Of a stretch of 64,000 nucleotides of DNA, positions 1,724-45,392 are shown in pieces. The stretch covers positions 47,696 through 111,695 of the forward strand of contig DNVW01000013.1 of the NCBI GenBank assembly GCA_003507395.1. Direction: 5' to 3'. A program made the translations under genes and the position numbers. The stretch's first letter is position 1. The number at the start of each line of letters is the position of its first letter. The notes below the pieces were generated by a model that did not search any database, was not told the origin of the DNA, and worked only from the letters and a program-made list of their open reading frames with translations. This DNA comes from Clostridiales bacterium. Its GTDB lineage: Bacteria > Bacillota > Clostridia > TANB77 > CAG-508.

Positions 1724-4700
1724 ATGAAACTAAAAAGAAAAATTGTACTTATTATATTATTAACATTTATATTTATACTTGTAGCAGGAACATTTAACAC
1801 AATTAGTGCAAGAACCGAAAATAAATGGTTTGGTTTAGAGCTATATCGTGAATCTGGCAATGGGTATATAGTAAATGAAAAAAATGTATGGGAGATATGC
1901 TCGTATGGAACAGGAACAACACCATCAGCAGTAGCTGATCACAGCGAAACAATATATTGTTTGAGAGCAGGAATAGGATTCGGAAGTGAAAACTGGGGTA
2001 ACTCAGTTACAGAGAAAAAACTATATACTAGCTCTTTTGATATGAAACAAGAGAAAATACCGGAAGAATACCTGACAGTATTACCAGAAGGCGAAAATTA
2101 TAAAAAGATGCTATGGATATTAGATAATGCATATGTAGCACCAAAAACACAGCAGGAAGAACAGGCTGCAACTGAATATAAAAAGCAATTATTAGCTAAA
2201 GCAGGAATACCTGAAAGCGAAATTAAATTAACAGATGAAGATATAGATGCAGCACAACAATTAGCAATATGGTATTTTACAAATCCTAATTCTGAATATC
2301 AAGTAGGAGATACATTTATATTCTATATACAAAATGAGGATGGAAGGTTTGCTTTAAATGGAAAAATTGGTGGAGAATATATTTTTGAAAATGGTCAAGA
2401 AAGACACCAACAAGCTAATAAATTAGTTAGATACCTTATAGATAATGCGAATGCACAAGCAGCTTTGAGTCCTTCAATGAATAGTACAATAAAACCACTT
2501 GAAATAGAAAAAACAAATCCTACTGTAAATGTAGAAAATAATAAATATGTAATAGGACCATATAAAATAAAACAAAATATTAATTGTGAGTATACATATG
2601 ATGTTACTTTTACAGATGGAAATGGAAATGAAATAGAAAATTATACTATATTAGATAGTAGCAATACTACACTATCAAATATAGAAGTAAATAAAGAATT
2701 TTATATCTCTGTACCAATGTCAACAAACGTAAATGAATTTAAAATGAAAATAAACTTTTCATATTTTGGAACAGATATAAGATATTGGGTTGTAACAAAT
2801 GCTGTGGCATCAAATCAACCAATAGCTATAGTAGACAGAAAGAAAATAGAAGCAGAAGATGAGATAACAACAAGCTATACAAAACCACAATTTGACTTAG
2901 CTCTAAGAAAATTCATAACGAAAGTAAATGAAGTAGAACTAACAGGAGATGATAGCAGAATACCACAAGTGGATACAACACCATTAATAAGTGAAAGTTC
3001 TACTACAGCCATTTACAAACATGGTAAGAACCCAGTAATAGTAAAAACAGGAGACATAGTAACATATACAATAAGAATATACAATGAAGGAAAAGCAGAT
3101 GGATATGTAGCTATGGTAGAAGATGTTTTACCAGCGGGGTTAGCATTGGTGGCTAATAGCCAAATAAACACAGATAATGGCTGGGAAGTGCTAAAAACTG
3201 GCGATGGAAAAACATATGTAGGAACAAATAAATTGGCAAATCAACTAATTTCAGCATTTAATGGAGAAGAGTTAGATTATAAAGATTTAGAAATTGAATG
3301 TGAAGTAACAATGACAGCAGGAAATGAAAATATAGTATTAAAAAACATTGCAGAAATAACATCTGATTCAAATATATATCAAGAAAAAGACAGAGACTCA
3401 GAACCAGGAAATGTAGATTTATCAACATATGGAACAACAAGTCAAGAAGATGATGATGATTTTGAACAATTAGTAATTAAACCAATAGAGGTTAAACCAG
3501 AATTTGATTTAGCATTAAGAAAATTTATTATACAAATAAATGGTGTGGATTTAGAAACATTAGGGTTGGAAAATAGAGAACCACAAGTAGACGTATCACC
3601 ATTAATACATAATAGAAAAACTTTAAATACTACAGCAATATATAATCATCCTAAAACATCAGTAAAAGTTAAAAAGGGTGATATAGTAACATATACAATA
3701 AGAGTATATAACGAAGGTGAAATGGCAGGATATGCGACAAAAGTTGAAGATATATTGCCAGCAGGTTTGAAATTAGCAGAAAATAGTACAATCAACGAAA
3801 AATATGGTTGGAAAGCAGTAAAACATGAATATATAGAAGGTGCAACTGTAGTACATACTACTTATTTACAAGATACAGAAATAGAAGCATTTAATGGAGA
3901 AGAATTAGATTATAAAGATTTAATTATTGAATGTGTAGTTACTGCGACACCAGGAACAGAAGAAGAGATTGTTATAAGAAATGTGGCTGAAATAGCAGCT
4001 GATAATAATGCTCTAGATATGGAAGACAGAGATTCAGAACCAGGAAATTTAACAGTAGAAACATTTAACGAAGAAGAGCACGAAGATGATGAAGACTTTG
4101 AAAAATTAGTAATTGAACCGGTATTAAAAACGGAATTTGATTTAGCATTAAGAAAATTTGTAACATCTGTGAATGGAGTAGAATTAAAAGATGAAAATGA
4201 TAATTATTTAAGAGCACCTATTGTAGATATAACAAAATTATTAAATGGAACTGCTAAAACAGCGGTATATAACCACTCAAAAACTCCTGTAGCAGTTGAT
4301 TTGGGAGATGAAGTTATATATACAATAAGAGTATATAACGAAGGTGAAGAAGATGGATATGTTACAGAAATAACAGACCATATACCTAAACAACTAGAAT
4401 TTATAATAGATGATGAGTTGAATGCAAGTTATGGATGGCAAGTAAGCAATGATGGCAGAACAGTTAAAACAGATATTACATCATTAAATACACAATACTC
4501 AGCTAATAGGGATCTTATATATGAAGATAGAAAACCAGGAAACGATAAAGTAAAATTAGATAAACTTTCAACAAATGGAATTGATTACATAGATGTACAG
4601 ATAAAATGCAAAGTAAAAGAAAATAGTGATATATACAAAAAAATTACAAATATAGCAGAAGTTACAGGATATGTAGATCTAAATGGAAATACTTCTTCAG

Positions 4701-6058
4701 ATAGAGATTCAACAGCATATGTTGTTTTACCAACAGATGAGACATTGCCAAATTATAAAGATGATGAAATAAATAATGGAGATGAATATATTCCAGGACA
4801 AGAAGATGATGACGATTTTGAAAAATTAGTATTACAAAGATTTGATTTAGCATTAAGGAAATTTATAACTGGAGTAAATGACGAGGAAGTAACAGAAAGA
4901 ATACCAATATTTACTAAAAATGCTGATGGAACACATACATATGAGCATCCAAAAACACCTCTAGGAGTAGTAAATGGCGACTTGGTAACATATACATTAA
5001 GAATTTACAATGAGGGAAATCAAGCAGGATATGCAGAAACTGTAAAAGATGATATACCAGAAGGATTAGAGTATTTACCAGAAAATGAATTAAATATAAG
5101 CTACAGATGGAAAATGTATAAAGAAGATGGAGAATTGGCAACGAATGTAGAAGAAGCTAAATACATAGAGACAGATTACTTATCAAAAGAGCAAGAAAAG
5201 ACAGAAGGCGAAAACTTAATACAAGCATATAATCCATCTACAATGACACAACCTGATTATAAAGATGTAAAAGTTGTATTTAAGGTAAAAGAGCCAAATA
5301 CTTCAGACAGAATAATAATAAATACTGCAGAGATTTCTGATGATAGTGATGAATATGGCAACCCTGTTGATGATGTCGATTCAACACCAAATAATAATAA
5401 ACCAGAAGAAGATGACATAGATGTTGAAAAAATTAAAGTAAAATATTTTGATTTAGCTTTGAAGAAATGGGTAACTTCATCAATAACCATATATGATGGA
5501 AAAACTACAATTGTAAAAACTGGACACACAGGAGACGAAGATCCAGAACCAGTTGTTAAAGTAGATATTAAAGAAAGCAGATTAAAAGATACAATTGTAA
5601 AATTTACTTATAATATCAAAGTGACAAATGAAGGCGAAATAGCAGGTTATGTTAAAGAAATATCTGACTACATACCAGAAGGGCTAAAATTTGTTAAAGA
5701 AGATAATCCAGAGTGGGAAGAGGTAGATGGCAAAGTAGTAACAACACAACTAGAAAATACATTACTACAACCAGGAGAAAGCGCAATAGTAGAAATAACC
5801 TTAACATGGATAAATGATAAAAACAACTTAGGCTTAAAAGTAAATGTTGCAGAAATAAGCAAAGATTATAATGACAGCAATACACCAGATATAGATTCTA
5901 CTCCAAACAACAAAGTGGAAGGAGAAGATGACCAAGACGATGCACCAGTAATCTTATCATTACAAACAGGTGTAACTGGACAATATATAGTTTTAACAAT
6001 GTCAATATTAATAATAATAGCAACTGGAGTAATATTAATTAAAAAATATGTAATATAA
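1724..6058 (+). CDS. Large secreted or cell-surface protein with five tandem DUF11-like (conserved repeat domain) modules and a C-terminal sorting-signal-like tail
   Basis: Start ATG 1724 (MKLKRK...) follows SD AAAAGGTGG; the track's GTG 1712 is the alternative. N-terminal signal peptide, an N-terminal domain of about 390 aa, then five modules each beginning FDLAL(R/K)K(F/W) and containing VTYT(I/L)R(I/V)YNEG...GY. Acidic EDDDDFE(K/Q)LV linkers join them. The C-terminus reads ...ILSLQTGVTGQYIVLTMSILIIIATGVILIKKYVI (motif, TM helix, basic tail). Confidence 0.85.
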   Translation: MKLKRKIVLIILLTFIFILVAGTFNTISARTENKWFGLELYRESGNGYIVNEKNVWEICSYGTGTTPSAVADHSETIYCLRAGIGFGSENWGNSVTEKKLYTSSFDMKQEKIPEEYLTVLPEGENYKKMLWILDNAYVAPKTQQEEQAATEYKKQLLAKAGIPESEIKLTDEDIDAAQQLAIWYFTNPNSEYQVGDTFIFYIQNEDGRFALNGKIGGEYIFENGQERHQQANKLVRYLIDNANAQAALSPSMNSTIKPLEIEKTNPTVNVENNKYVIGPYKIKQNINCEYTYDVTFTDGNGNEIENYTILDSSNTTLSNIEVNKEFYISVPMSTNVNEFKMKINFSYFGTDIRYWVVTNAVASNQPIAIVDRKKIEAEDEITTSYTKPQFDLALRKFITKVNEVELTGDDSRIPQVDTTPLISESSTTAIYKHGKNPVIVKTGDIVTYTIRIYNEGKADGYVAMVEDVLPAGLALVANSQINTDNGWEVLKTGDGKTYVGTNKLANQLISAFNGEELDYKDLEIECEVTMTAGNENIVLKNIAEITSDSNIYQEKDRDSEPGNVDLSTYGTTSQEDDDDFEQLVIKPIEVKPEFDLALRKFIIQINGVDLETLGLENREPQVDVSPLIHNRKTLNTTAIYNHPKTSVKVKKGDIVTYTIRVYNEGEMAGYATKVEDILPAGLKLAENSTINEKYGWKAVKHEYIEGATVVHTTYLQDTEIEAFNGEELDYKDLIIECVVTATPGTEEEIVIRNVAEIAADNNALDMEDRDSEPGNLTVETFNEEEHEDDEDFEKLVIEPVLKTEFDLALRKFVTSVNGVELKDENDNYLRAPIVDITKLLNGTAKTAVYNHSKTPVAVDLGDEVIYTIRVYNEGEEDGYVTEITDHIPKQLEFIIDDELNASYGWQVSNDGRTVKTDITSLNTQYSANRDLIYEDRKPGNDKVKLDKLSTNGIDYIDVQIKCKVKENSDIYKKITNIAEVTGYVDLNGNTSSDRDSTAYVVLPTDETLPNYKDDEINNGDEYIPGQEDDDDFEKLVLQRFDLALRKFITGVNDEEVTERIPIFTKNADGTHTYEHPKTPLGVVNGDLVTYTLRIYNEGNQAGYAETVKDDIPEGLEYLPENELNISYRWKMYKEDGELATNVEEAKYIETDYLSKEQEKTEGENLIQAYNPSTMTQPDYKDVKVVFKVKEPNTSDRIIINTAEISDDSDEYGNPVDDVDSTPNNNKPEEDDIDVEKIKVKYFDLALKKWVTSSITIYDGKTTIVKTGHTGDEDPEPVVKVDIKESRLKDTIVKFTYNIKVTNEGEIAGYVKEISDYIPEGLKFVKEDNPEWEEVDGKVVTTQLENTLLQPGESAIVEITLTWINDKNNLGLKVNVAEISKDYNDSNTPDIDSTPNNKVEGEDDQDDAPVILSLQTGVTGQYIVLTMSILIIIATGVILIKKYVI
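2881..5840 (+). repeat. Five divergent tandem DUF11-like coding repeats (period about 600-710 bp) inside the surface-protein gene
   Basis: FDLALRKF occurs near nt 2890, 3500, 4135, 4843 and 5446. Each is followed by a D-x-DSEPGN or DSTPNN motif. Amino-acid conservation with nucleotide divergence indicates an old duplication. Confidence 0.8.
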
Positions 6059-6070
6059 CATAACCAAAAA

Positions 6071-6100
6071 AGACAGAGATAACTTCTCTGTCTTCTTTGT
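6071..6100 (+). terminator. Intrinsic terminator hairpin (AGACAGAGA-taact-TCTCTGTCT)
   Basis: Perfect 9-bp stem immediately after the stop of the surface-protein gene, followed by a U-rich tract. Confidence 0.6.
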
Positions 6101-6160
6101 GCCAAAATTCCCCGTCCCCATTGGCAGAAAAATGTGTCAAAGGGGACGGGGAATTTTGGC
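6101..6160. repeat. GC-rich palindromic element, copy C (perfect 19-bp inverted repeat GCCAAAATTCCCCGTCCCC / GGGGACGGGGAATTTTGGC with a 22-nt loop)
   Basis: Seen directly. Related in motif content (GGGAC-G-CCC core plus AATT) to the elements at 30681-30805 and 45255-45392. Followed by a T-run (acatcttttt). Confidence 0.7.
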
Positions 6161-6261
6161 ACATCTTTTTAAATTGCTTATTTTAAAAAAATACTATTTA
6201 CTTTTACTTTATTATATAATACAATATTAGCCAGTTAAAAATACGAATATGGAGTTTAGTT

Positions 6262-28263: not shown

Positions 28264-28280
28264 AAAAGTAATTTAAAATA

Positions 28281-28320
28281 AAAAAAGAGGGCAATACTAA
28301 GAGTATTTGCCCTCTTCGAT
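28281..28320. terminator. Bidirectional intrinsic terminator (GAGGGCAA-tactaagagtat-TTGCCCTC flanked by A- and T-runs)
   Basis: 8-bp GC-rich stem between convergent gdpP (+) and the small ORF (-). Confidence 0.65.
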
Positions 28321-28362
28321 TGTGTTTATCCACAATCTCACGTTATTCAACGTTAAAAGTTT

Positions 28363-28533
28363 TTAACCCCTCTTGGTTCCGTCAGACCAAAAGCACTCTC
28401 CAGTGTACCGACAGTATAGACTGCCGTCTGTCAACTCTTCAAGATCGCCGTTATCTTTAGCGTTCTCGACTTCAGTTTCATCAAGGTTGCCATCGTTATC
28501 AACGACATAATCATTGCTGAGTTTCCATGCCAT
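28363..28533 (-). CDS. Small acidic 56-aa protein (MAWKLSNDYVVDNDGNLDETEVENAKDNGDLEELTDGSLYCRYTGECFWSDGTKRG); function unknown, candidate secreted peptide or small regulator
   Basis: SD AAAGGAGGT sits 9 nt before ATG 28533. It has its own promoter and terminator. The track's longer ORF (to 28617) lacks an RBS. Confidence 0.6.
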   Translation of the reverse strand: MAWKLSNDYVVDNDGNLDETEVENAKDNGDLEELTDGSLYCRYTGECFWSDGTKRG

Positions 28534-28621
28534 AGAGAAGTACCTCCTTTCATAAAATATTGATTTTAGAAATGAAAGACTGTTGAATAACGTGTAGTTA
28601 CCAAAATATGTAACCAACTTA

Positions 28622-28650
28622 AGTATACTACATGATTAAAATAAAGTCAA
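28622..28650 (-). promoter_or_regulatory. sigma-A-like promoter on the minus strand (TTGACT-17-TATACT) driving the 56-aa ORF
   Basis: Reverse complement of 28622-28650. The implied TSS gives a 5' UTR of about 80-90 nt. Confidence 0.5.
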
Positions 28651-28802
28651 TATATTTGGTAAAGTAGATAGTATTGTTTTGTAAATTTTATTCTTCAGCA
28701 AAATTATTACAGTTCAGATTTAAAACACTTGAAAAAAAGGCAATTATGATATATTATATAATATGTAAAAATATATAAAAATTTGAAAGGAAGGATAATT
28801 AT

Positions 28803-30680: not shown

Positions 30681-30805
30681 GTTGTCACAATGGGGACGTT
30701 CCTTTTTGTGACAAAATGACACTTTGGGGACACACCTTATTGCAAAGGACTGTCCCAAAGTGTGCAAACGGGACAATTAGGGACTGTCCCTAATTGGGTA
30801 GAAAG
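30681..30805. repeat. GC-rich palindromic element, copy A
   Basis: Composite of TTGTCACAA...TTGTGACAA, GGACTGTCCC and the perfect palindrome AATTAGGGAC-t-GTCCCTAATT. It fills the entire dnaB-tilS spacer. Confidence 0.7.
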
Positions 30806-44700: not shown

Positions 44701-45280
44701 ATACAAAAAAATAAGCGAAAGATATGACTTTATGTGTGAACAAAGATTAGATTTAGAAAATACGGTAGCAAAGTTAAGAAAAGTGATTTCAGAAATGACG
44801 CAAACAATGGAACAACAATTTAAAGAGAAATTTGAAATAATAAATAAAAACTTTAATGAAGTATTTATAGAATTATTTGGAGGAGGAAAAGCAGAATTAA
44901 TATTAACAGACGAAGATAATGTACTAGAATGTGGAATAGATATAAGAGTTCAGCCAACAGGAAAGAAATTACAAAATATGATGTTACTATCAGGAGGAGA
45001 AAAAGCATTTACAGCAATAGCACTTTTATTTGCAATACTAAAAATAAACCCAGCACCATTCTGTATACTAGACGAAATAGAAGCAGCACTAGATGATGTA
45101 AATGTCTACAGATTTGCAGAATATCTAAAAAAATTTAGTCAAGCATCACAATTCTTAGTAATAACACACAGAAAAGGAACAATGGAAGTAGCAGACACAG
45201 TATATGGAGTAACAATGGAGGAAAATGGCATAAGCAAGCTACTATCAATGAAACTCAGCTCAATTGGGGACAGTCCCTAA
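41714..45280 (+). CDS. smc: Chromosome partition protein SMC
   Basis: 1188 aa. N-terminal Walker A GPNGSGKSN, long coiled coils, hinge, and C-terminal LSGGEKA...ILDEIEAALD. The last 7 codons and the stop (SSIGDSP*) lie inside repeat copy B. Confidence 0.95.
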   Translation: MYLKRLELQGFKSFADKTILEFKPGITSVIGPNGSGKSNISDAIRWVLGEQSMKSLRGAKSEDIIFAGTQSRKSLGFAEVSIVIDNSDAKLPIEYSEVTVTRKLYRNGETGYFINKTPCRLKDILELFMDTGIGKDGYSIIGQGKIDEILSNKSEDRRHIFEEAAGIVKYRTRKQESEKKMEQTKLNLLRINDILTEIEGNIEPLKAQSEKAKQYLNLREELKNIEVGLFVYNINTYKEKLEQIIKDEEIMTSQRNTENEKLTSIQSLKDSLKQELDEITTQIEQMQNIGFESTNKIEKINSEIGISKERIQNNITNKERLESEIKELRIRIQELQEEEKQRQEKKANLFQNKEKFEEELKQKEKELAKLTKTLSDKELEIEAKKQKIETNTDKKYEVLADINTQEANYENLEKRKKTLKIELENVISELDSTRDNKQELSKKFYEIQSKRNIVSNNLQQETTEKESCMNKIKDFEEEINKLNYQMNMKDARHKFLLETEKEKEGYIKSVKELLLDCDKNSQLKKGMHGVLANLISVNKEYELAIEMCLGQALQNVVTETEEDAKKLVEHLRNNNLGRASFLPISSIRGKRIENVISNGMKGVIGIASDLVKCDKKYTQIVLNLLGRTVVVEDMNIGISLAKMNNYSFRIVTLKGDVISSSGSITGGSVATKTVNILGRSREIEELEKEIKKLSKKIEEITLQKRKYLESITEVIEKVAGLEKELQDIEIVYAAENQKMVSIEENIYKLEQRRDKLKEEELSINKQKEESIKQKEEKEQEVEKLNSEIKSLSEEVEQFATVNKDNQKYIDDLNFDITNLKISVSSFIESEASIEEFVERIRQEILNNNNNIENKNNTLNQAIKENTELQTKIDNLNSEIEQIKAEVNNSSENIEKLKQLRTEKNELLDKKEEEITNQFSILEGLKEQIVKMDFKKTKLEQDIEQLINTLWDEYEITPNNAGEYKKPNNIAQAQKEVSSIREKIKDLGSINIDSIEEYKKISERYDFMCEQRLDLENTVAKLRKVISEMTQTMEQQFKEKFEIINKNFNEVFIELFGGGKAELILTDEDNVLECGIDIRVQPTGKKLQNMMLLSGGEKAFTAIALLFAILKINPAPFCILDEIEAALDDVNVYRFAEYLKKFSQASQFLVITHRKGTMEVADTVYGVTMEENGISKLLSMKLSSIGDSP

Positions 45281-45392
45281 ATGTCCAAATGGGACAATTT
45301 GGGACAGCCCTTAACCTAAAAATAGAATTGATAAAAATATCAATTCTATTTTTTTACATTAATGCATATTATTATTAAGGGCTGTCCCTATT
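45255..45392. repeat. GC-rich palindromic element, copy B
   Basis: Contains CAATTGGGGACAGTCCC, TGGGACAATTTGGGACAGCCC and the inverted partner AAGGGCTGTCCC. The GGGACAGCCCTTA (45298-45310) / TAAGGGCTGTCCC (45376-45388) pair brackets an AT-rich hairpin (AATAGAATTGATA-aaaa-TATCAATTCTATT + T7). Confidence 0.7.
45316..45352 (+). terminator. Terminator-like hairpin nested inside repeat copy B (AATAGAATTGATA / TATCAATTCTATT + TTTTTTT)
   Basis: 13-bp perfect stem with a U-run, 36 nt after the smc stop. Confidence 0.55.

Follow-up and report, generated by a model that had tools for sequence, protein, structure and literature searches.

Three GC-rich palindromic sites in the AT-rich DNA of the window (the whole 64,000-nt stretch analyzed here) are very probably REP-type elements, occurring as singlets, REPIN-like inverted doublets, and short arrays and acting as the noncoding partners of HUH Y1 transposases of the RAYT/TIRYT class. 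They fall into two families of dispersed, extragenic, hairpin-forming repeats, each of which brackets a RAYT-class gene. Type 2 is cognate to the 226-aa RAYT CDD16783.1, which is bracketed by inverted units, and type 1 is cognate to a second RAYT lineage (P0336). The repeats show presence or absence and rearrangement both among strains and among species, and the RAYT transposases presumably mobilize them. Such a REP/RAYT (TIRtron-like) system is a known kind of domesticated mobile DNA and not a new kind of system.

All three sites lie at the positions given in the original prediction. Clusters of GGGAC/GTCCC occur in the window at 6114-6143, 30693-30786, and 45267-45301 and nowhere else. The sequence GGGACNGTCCC, with at most one mismatch, was found three times against 0.06 expected, and none of 100 shuffles reached three. 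The profiles scored on the window contained no window sequence, solely copies from other organisms, and their matches were confined to the three named sites (E 1e-11 to 1e-17). Some particulars of the prediction needed adjustment. The GC content of the window is 28.4% rather than about 27%. Copy C is a perfect inverted repeat, as claimed, but its perfect arms measure 22 bp (6098-6119 and 6142-6163) instead of 19 bp. Site 3 is not wholly intergenic, as the smc stop codon (45278-45280) sits inside its first palindrome. The single repeat family that had been proposed holds insofar as the GGGGAC core relates the sites to each other, but it divides into two related subfamilies, one represented by copy C and the other by sites 2 and 3. 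Sites 2 and 3 share a stretch that matches at 83% (repeat I1), positioned on the right of site 2 (30745-30796) and on the left of site 3 (45261-45312). No Rfam family matched the window at the gathering threshold or at E values up to 0.1, and five related loci gave just chance miRNA-type matches far below threshold. A full-text literature search with six core sequences returned eukaryotic primers and similar items and no paper with these repeats. The individual units are listed in Table 1.

Table 1. Repeat units of the two families in the window and the terminator-like hairpins next to them
Feature	Positions	Strand	Description
Terminator-like hairpin (context only)	6065..6097	+	Belongs to the upstream gene for a 1448-aa surface protein; abuts copy C
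Copy C, left arm	6098..6126	-	Inverted type-2 REP unit, TGTGCCAAAATTCCCCGTCCCCATTGGCA; type-2 HMM without this locus, 6096-6130(-), E 3.9e-13; arm of inverted repeat I15
Copy C, spacer	6127..6134	.	8 nt, GAAAAATG; center of the 22-nt stretch that separates the perfect arms
Copy C, right arm	6135..6163	+	Type-2 REP unit, TGTCAAAGGGGACGGGGAATTTTGGCACA; HMM 6132-6166(+), E 2.4e-11
Site 2, left hairpin unit	30681..30713	+	Type-2 architecture, TTGTCACAA-TGGGGACGTTCCTTT-TTGTGACAA; 1 nt past the dnaB stop codon
Site 2, partial type-1 element	30714..30739	+	CCTTA end, AAATGACACTTTGGGGACACACCTTA; weak type-1 HMM match, 30691-30739, E 0.06
Site 2, full type-1 REP element	30745..30797	+	AAGGACTGTCCC...GGGACAATTAGGGACTGTCCCTAATTGG; type-1 HMM (other organisms only), E 3.8e-17
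Site 3 left, full type-1 REP element	45260..45314	-	Type-1 HMM, E 1.6e-14; invariant in 10 strains
Intrinsic-terminator hairpin with T-run (context only)	45319..45356	+	Enclosed by two inverted type-1 ends
Site 3 right, solo type-1 end	45375..45392	+	TTAAGGGCTGTCCCTATT; inverted relative to 45301-45314; weak HMM match, 45375-45390, E 0.14

Copy C is an inverted doublet of the type-2 unit, with 29-nt arms that are complementary at 93%. Folded as single-stranded DNA, the doublet reached -32.7 kcal/mol (z = -11.5). The hairpin that abuts it on the left was flagged on the minus strand by a simple scan; on the plus strand its stem is followed by TTCTTTG. As an exact 20-mer of the right arm, the copy C sequence (GGGGACGGGGAATTTTGGCA) was found at more than 106 metagenome loci among the matches listed, nearly all of them on human-gut contigs of 24 to 33% GC. 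In low-GC loci the arm occurred 121 times, in at least 66 two-flank contexts among the matches listed. Conservation was complete from the first T of TGCCAA through to GGCACA and gone outside, and these sharp limits define a type-2 unit of 29 nt, TGCCAAWGGGGACGGGGAATTTTGGCACA. It has a stem of 7 to 10 bp and a loop that carries GGGGACGGGG; in the predicted fold (-5.1 kcal/mol, z = -3.75), a stem of 10 bp closes a loop of 13 nt. Among the matches listed, 83 of 89 distinct type-2 sites (93%) lay outside open reading frames of at least 120 aa, compared with the 26% expected from the 74% of bases that such frames occupy.

Strains with an identical downstream protein carry copy C in five forms. The doublet of the window is accompanied by a doublet with loop substitutions, a doublet in which the 22-nt loop is inverted and a 9-nt duplication is present, a doublet with a symmetrized loop, and a single unit. 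The 22-nt stretch is inverted in strain L075 and symmetrized in strain L080, and the right arm is the sole unit in strain L083. The change between doublet and singlet comes without any change in the flanks. Alternation of singlet and doublet was seen at a second locus as well, and several loci combine flanks of different contexts. Singlet and doublet changes of this type could also arise by replication slippage between the direct repeats of 6 to 8 nt at the unit ends, with no transposase involved. Filled-versus-empty comparisons at copy C and at the dnaB-tilS site showed no target-site duplication flanking the elements, and no conserved target was seen.

Type 1 is built on GGGACAATTnGGGACnGTCCCnAATTG. 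At site 2, the left hairpin (30681..30713) has a different stem and matches the type-2 HMM weakly, and it is therefore regarded as a variant type-2 form; type 1 makes up the rest of this site and the smc site. The full type-1 element at 30745..30797 ends 3 nt (GTA) before the ribosome-binding site of tilS. It is nearly invariant in 10 strains and absent from a sister species whose DnaB is 94% identical (loci L218-L224). There the dnaB-tilS spacer measures 45 nt and, in L218-L223, holds the first hairpin as its only element, plus the ribosome-binding site. The species of the window has 87 extra nucleotides of type-1 sequence (30714-30800), the first part of which is the partial element 30714..30739. 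This difference represents an insertion or a deletion against L218-L224. In a third relative, the dnaB-tilS spacer is free of any palindrome.

At site 3, the left type-1 element overlaps the last seven codons and the TAA stop of smc, and in the predicted fold GGGACAGCCCTTAA and TTAAGGGCTGTCCC pair around the terminator hairpin. The terminal sequence of the solo end at 45375..45392 is identical to that of elements L068 and L069. Placement at gene 3' ends, raised as a question in the original prediction, was observed, and in two genes the copies reach into the last codons: smc and a Mur ligase gene both end at a TAA inside the GTCCCTAATTG of the element. Both site 2 and site 3 are fixed in the species (10 strains), so these type-1 copies may be old and inactive. 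A fourth site lies outside the window. It is a type-1 doublet 222 to 284 nt before position 1, where it overlaps the end of the Mur ligase gene and precedes the ribosome-binding site of ddl.

Beyond the window, type 1 was followed by scanning one genome per species for GGGACAATTNGGGACNGYCC. The scan returned 63 stretches, and the genomes returned did not include the window's own species. Most stretches belonged to uncultured Clostridia MAGs of 27 to 32% GC from the gut of rabbit, mouse, or human, and one MAG could contain up to about 10 loci. As isolated copies, palindromes of type-1 build were found in Oceanobacillus, Peptoniphilus, an Oscillospiraceae MAG, Anaerospora, Pelotomaculum, and an Acidimicrobiales MAG. 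Merging the profile matches in the low-GC loci of this genome-collection scan gave 57 type-1 (GGGACAATT-type) islands of 24 to 159 nt. Together with the 66 or more flank contexts of the copy C unit, they supply the additional copies on which the original prediction had made its repeat family depend. The islands have a period of about 35 nt, with (T)AAGGGnTGTCCC at one end and GGGACnGTCCCnAATTG at the other. A type-1 doublet folds into a hairpin of 24 bp. Many type-1 elements stop directly 5' of ribosome-binding sites; the elements occur in both orientations relative to the neighboring genes and form arrays of up to 4.5 units. Other copies of the repeats adjoin tRNA genes or are arrayed in tandem or in inverted order. 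Copy number appears moderate, at about one site per 15 to 20 kb for both types together in the 73 kb examined.

The stems differ between lineages and still pair, as the original prediction had suggested should be checked by covariance. In a set of eight hand-picked sequences, which makes the result supportive rather than decisive, eight of nine base pairs changed on both sides, while GGAC remained invariant. Pairing was seen in 84.6% of cells, compared with 59% in shuffles and 33 to 43% when the alignment was slid. A GTAG or GTGG tag is missing from both the type-2 and the type-1 consensus, in which GGGGAC is the conserved motif.

Both families are physically associated with transposase genes. 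A 226-aa Y1 gene abuts a type-2 unit in metagenome loci. The cluster to which its product belongs contains P0241, which is CDD16783.1 of Clostridium sp. CAG:798, a Y1 (HUH) protein that bears the JGI name "REP element-mobilizing transposase RayT". P0241 occurs on 614 contigs, the longest of 1,334,627 nt, and the longest contig of P0244, a member of the same cluster, measures 1,458,522 nt; both lengths are those of contigs that carry proteins of the window. A rayT locus (L194) and the DnaB locus of the window (L005, 99.6 to 99.7% identical to the window) share one contig, ERZ28565402 scaffold_53, which proves that the type-2 rayT resides in the genome of the window. The gene starts 60.2 kb upstream of dnaB, corresponding to about 31 kb before position 1. 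It is flanked by a forward type-2 unit about 115 nt upstream and by an inverted unit 3 nt past the stop codon, with two further units nearby. Its left neighborhood is constant in 10 of 10 places (AspRS, peptidase S51, orf544, rayT); on the right, in the places inspected, a tRNA gene is followed by DUF2207 or, in some, by an integrase-bearing insertion. In L098, an 850-nt cassette of unit, rayT, and inverted unit is present twice, at 95.5% identity and in different surroundings.

The second RAYT, P0336 (HBJ11895.1), is 42% identical to P0241. Inverted type-1 elements flank its gene, whose neighbors are an FAD-protein gene on one side and dnaE on the other. The longest contig of P0336 (626,156 nt) equals that of a DnaB identical to the window's, and the two proteins occur together in one JGI sample; for these reasons P0336 probably resides in the genome of the window. 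A tblastn search with the RAYTs gave no match within the 64-kb window, and neither gene lies within 9 kb upstream of it; the tail of L182 does not overlap the P0336 locus. Ten large RAYT clusters had no member on the signature long contigs that would qualify as the type-1 RAYT of the window's organism. The association recurs in other genomes. Two MAG loci (L022 and L051) have type-1 clusters on both sides of a gene of about 260 aa that immediately precedes radA; next to the homologous gene of L065, the only type-1 cluster is a downstream one. A 46%-identical homologue at the same place in L044 is bracketed by hairpins GGTACCTTTGGGGACGTTTCCTAAAGGTAC, and in Anaerospora (L013) a homologue is bracketed by inverted GGGGACGGTCCTTTTTTG. 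All of these repeat-linked genes encode Pfam Y1_Tnp proteins. The REP/MITE-like reading offered in the original prediction thus gains support from the many extra copies and from the repeats that flank RAYT-type Y1 transposase genes.

The class of these proteins was assessed with family models. They scored 67 to 76 bits (best, 76.2) on the NCBIfam model for REP-associated tyrosine transposases, NF047646, just under its equivalog cutoff of 80, and at most 22 bits on the IS200 model NF033573, for which the cutoff is 55. A profile of 15 homologues, run against the PDB, gave E 2e-8 for TnpA-REP (4ER8) and no better than E 0.04 for IS200-type structures; the family profile was needed, as a single-sequence PDB search with P0241 gave no match. 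The HUH histidines, a tyrosine, and an N-P pair are invariant in the alignment of these homologues. A C-terminal segment that may be helix-turn-helix-like, IS..QISR..GINR, is conserved in 15 of 15. Pfam HTH matches of the C terminus were weak (HTH_23, E 0.25; HTH_68, E 0.032; HTH_3, E 0.09), and P0241 had none.

By analogy with E. coli TnpA-REP and the TnpA of IS200/IS605, the transposase would recognize the hairpin together with GGGGAC on single-stranded DNA at the replication fork and would then cut the strand at the hairpin foot and rejoin it. Cutting and rejoining of this kind could disperse, duplicate, or delete units. As a putative secondary effect, hairpins inserted in 3' untranslated regions and intercistronic spacers may influence mRNA ends.

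Alternatively, the hairpins might be primarily cis elements of the RNA, namely, 3'-end stabilizers, intercistronic processing sites, or terminator helpers maintained by selection, for which the link to a transposase is a matter of history. Several observations fit this explanation. Copy C abuts a terminator hairpin and the arms of site 3 enclose one, the spacer at site 2 has no obvious promoter or terminator, type-1 ends often stand just before ribosome-binding sites, sites 2 and 3 do not vary among strains of the species, and E. coli REPs stabilize upstream mRNA (cited in PMC6006769). We nevertheless consider it improbable as the primary explanation. The elements match no Rfam family even at E 0.1 and lie in both orientations relative to neighboring genes; copy C changes between doublet and singlet with its flanks unchanged, and the sister species does without 87 nt of site 2. 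It also leaves the bracketing of RAYT genes by the same units unexplained. A role in RNA is, however, compatible with the REP/RAYT explanation as a secondary, exapted one.

It is highly improbable that a dimeric transcription factor uses each GGGAC-N-GTCCC palindrome as its operator and controls a regulon that includes the three downstream genes, an alternative that the original prediction had left standing. The cores are dyad symmetric, with GGGAC half-sites about 10 to 11 bp apart, and several type-1 copies in MAGs lie upstream of radA or clpC-like genes; the element before radA, however, is merely the downstream flank of the RAYT gene. Other copies follow stop codons, lie inside gene 3' ends, adjoin tRNA genes, or form arrays of up to 4.5 units, 93% of copies are extragenic among the matches listed, and the distance to a promoter is not fixed. 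In addition, copy number varies between strains, and the sister species has no type-1 part upstream of tilS. We give equally little credence to the units being the terminal inverted repeats of a DDE-moved MITE or insertion sequence, or the LE/RE hairpins of an ordinary IS200/IS605 element. The 850-nt cassette that occurs twice in one contig is indeed IS-like, doublets resemble internally deleted elements, and one strain (L009) has an ISL3/UPF0236 transposase. No target-site duplications were seen in the filled-versus-empty comparisons, however, and no DDE transposase adjoined any copy examined. The protein scored 22 bits on the IS200 model (cutoff, 55) against 76 on the RAYT model, the rayT locus was fixed in 10 of 10 places, and its flanking units are inverted, unlike LE/RE ends. 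Two further groups of candidates were rejected. Ends of IS21, Tn7, or Mu-type transposons were discarded, as the neighbors in Oceanobacillus, Oscillospiraceae, and Anaerospora are ordinary housekeeping genes, with the exception of the Y1 gene of L013. Readings of the motif as CtsR-like, Rex-like, sigma-54, or an ECF promoter were dropped, since neither consensus nor spacing agrees and the genomic distribution is wrong.

Within the REP/RAYT explanation, a broader reading is possible and is put forward tentatively: the hairpins with GGGGAC in the loop may be the missing REP/REPIN partners of HTH-bearing TIRYTs (subclass 2.1) and form a superfamily that spans phyla, with two orthogonal RAYT-REP pairs coexisting and active in a 1.4-Mb gut Clostridium, where they would remodel gene 3' ends and spacers. 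The palindrome core is shared by Clostridia, Bacilli (Oceanobacillus), Negativicutes (Anaerospora), Pelotomaculum, and an Acidimicrobiales MAG. If this reading is true, the repeats have donated stop codons to smc and to the mur ligase gene, and metagenomes capture the events themselves, including the change from doublet to singlet, loop inversion, and cassette duplication.

To our knowledge, nearly all work on REP/RAYT systems has dealt with Proteobacteria, and what is known of their biochemistry comes from a single E. coli enzyme. The present analysis adds a sharply defined pair of REP families, with their transposases, in a very prevalent human-gut Clostridium (CAG:798-like) with a small genome. 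The repeats account for the otherwise puzzling GC-rich islands of this AT-rich genome and add REP-encoded tails to two proteins. Breaks in short-read assemblies are probably due in part to them. Their natural polymorphisms can be followed in existing metagenomes and make useful strain markers.

Insertion sequences of the IS200/IS605 family end in distinct LE and RE sequences that are not inverted copies of one another. The system described here resembles IS608 and ISDra2 of this family in its Y1 HUH transposase, which by analogy would recognize hairpins of single-stranded DNA, and in the duplication of the cassette in one contig. It differs from them in that the flanking hairpins are inverted copies of one sequence, the gene is confined to a single locus in the window's species, and the hairpins greatly outnumber the gene; the low score on the IS200 model (just 22 bits versus a cutoff of 55) points the same way.

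REP and REPIN elements with RAYT (TnpA-REP) transposases have reportedly been described by Bertels and Rainey and by Ton-Hoang (2012), with 4ER8 as the structure. The arrangement of gene and repeats is known as the REPtron (Nunvar 2010, PMC2817692). As in REPtrons, the repeats here are short imperfect palindromes, strongly extragenic and present in many copies, which stand alone as singlets, pair as inverted doublets, or cluster; a Y1 HUH gene at a fixed chromosomal locus has these repeats on either side in inverted orientation, and the protein is nearest to TnpA-REP in the PDB and in NCBIfam. In contrast to REPtrons, they have no GT[AG]G tag, and the conserved GGGGAC is found, in type 2, within the loop instead of at the 5' foot. 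Their host, a gut Clostridium of about 1.4 Mb, is low in GC (28%) and not a proteobacterium, copy number appears moderate, and the protein has a C-terminal extension of about 90 to 130 aa. Group 1 RAYTs occur in Clostridia, where their flanking 16-mers are of low abundance, at about 12 per replicon (Bertels, Gallie, and Rainey 2017, PMC5581495). The moderate copy number here is similar, the likeness to this group being drawn by description; that paper describes no specific clostridial REP sequence.

The closest parallel in motif is the TIRtron, in which TIRYT genes are flanked by inverted repeats that share GGGGWSAS (Di Nocera et al. 2013, PMC3733652). TIRtron repeat families are moderately abundant and occur as dimers or clusters (PMC3733652), as do the families described here. 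A RAYT-like gene with inverted GGGGWSAS-type flanks is found in both, and the conserved GGGGAC(A/T/G)G fits the motif: GGGGACAG of type 1 is an exact fit, GGGGACTG, also held by type-1 flanks, is off at one position, and GGGGACGG of the type-2 flanks fits at 7 of 8 positions. Quentin et al. (2018) equate TIRYTs with the HTH-bearing TnpA-Y1 subclass 2.1 and found no REP-like sequences near genes of this subclass (PMC6006769). The possibly HTH-like C-terminal segment of the present proteins would liken them to this subclass by description; their Pfam HTH matches are weak (E 0.03 to 0.25). Unlike in TIRtrons, the flanking repeats here are hairpins themselves and belong to large, sharply bounded, dispersed families. 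Hairpin repeats that are genuine and dispersed are thereby linked to the little-studied "TIRtron" class with its GGGGWSAS motif, and the new point, a modest one, is that transposases of the GGGGWSAS type have REP/REPIN-like families in a common gut Clostridium, where they are apparently active.

Strains that encode an identical 164-aa protein downstream differ from one another at copy C, the inverted doublet of the 29-nt type-2 REP unit. When the corresponding loci L074 to L083 were compared, the 22-nt loop was found to be inverted in L075, which also carries a 9-nt duplication (TTTGACACC). The loop has been symmetrised in L080, and only one unit is present in L083. In metagenome loci L087, L116, L123, L136, L145, L156, and L188, full type-2 units are preceded by short tandem partial duplications of the unit 5' end, either (TGCCAAAGGG)n or TGCCAATGGG. 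This pattern suggests repeated slippage, or aborted cleavage followed by rejoining, at one position. The exact type-2 20-mer was present in a single viral contig, L235 (IMGVR_UViG_3300045988_170670), which could represent either a prophage resident in this host or a fragment of host DNA.

Type-1 elements, which form the related REP sub-family, supply the ends of two genes. The smc reading frame enters such an element and terminates at the TAA within its GTCCCTAATTG, and the Mur ligase gene preceding ddl runs into another and stops at the same position of the repeat. The last codons and the stop codon of both genes are therefore repeat encoded. In rabbit-gut MAGs, as many as 4.5 type-1 units follow one another head to tail with a 35-nt period. 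Type-1 units in these MAGs also stand on both sides of a small HTH_19 gene whose neighbors are dnaE and an FAD-protein gene, the neighborhood that is occupied in the human-gut species by P0336, the second RAYT.

Other features of the window were also recorded. The gdpP-rplI interval holds a strain-variable cassette, which in the window, L003, L006, L007, and L009 measures approximately 455 nt and contains a minus-strand ORF for a small, acidic 56-aa product (MAWKLSNDYVVDNDGNLDETEVENAKDNGDLEELTDGSLYCRYTGECFWSDGTKRG); in other strains, the interval is taken up by 118 nt of unrelated sequence that includes a terminator-like hairpin. The gene for the 1,448-aa surface protein, which has TED/CLIPPER-type domains, contains four diverged internal repeats of approximately 630 nt each, and the C terminus of its product, judged by sequence, is a possible cell wall sorting signal. 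An Rfam search of the entire 64 kb (window 1-64000) at E values of up to 0.1 returned no family matches, even though this DNA contains rpoB/rpoC, rplI, and further conserved operons.

Coordinates of the repeat elements and other features (L numbers, related genome or metagenome loci)
Feature	Location	Remark
Copy C	window 6098-6163	
smc end in type-1 element	window 45260-45280	
Type-1 element at Mur ligase gene end	L236 8844-8906	222-284 nt before the start of the window
Type-1 arrays/bracketed HTH_19 gene	L061 4505-4599; L034 6803-6961; L066	rabbit-gut MAGs
Exact type-2 20-mer	L235 5467-5486	viral contig
Two rayT cassette copies	L098 120-969 and 3615-4465	
gdpP-rplI cassette	window 28267-28722	vs L005 9256-9374
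Surface protein gene repeats	window 2882-5691	
UPF0236/ISL3-like transposase	L009 2257-3666	GCA_046989245.1

Some strains carry phage-type integrase islands downstream of rayT, beside the tRNA gene adjoining it (L195 and L198), and in one strain the interval that separates the Rieske/FAD gene from the G5 gene contains an inserted UPF0236/ISL3-like transposase. On one gut contig (L098), the entire cassette of unit, rayT, and inverted unit (approximately 850 nt) occurs twice within 5.7 kb, with 95.5% identity between the copies. The RAYT of this organism acts in the manner of an insertion sequence.
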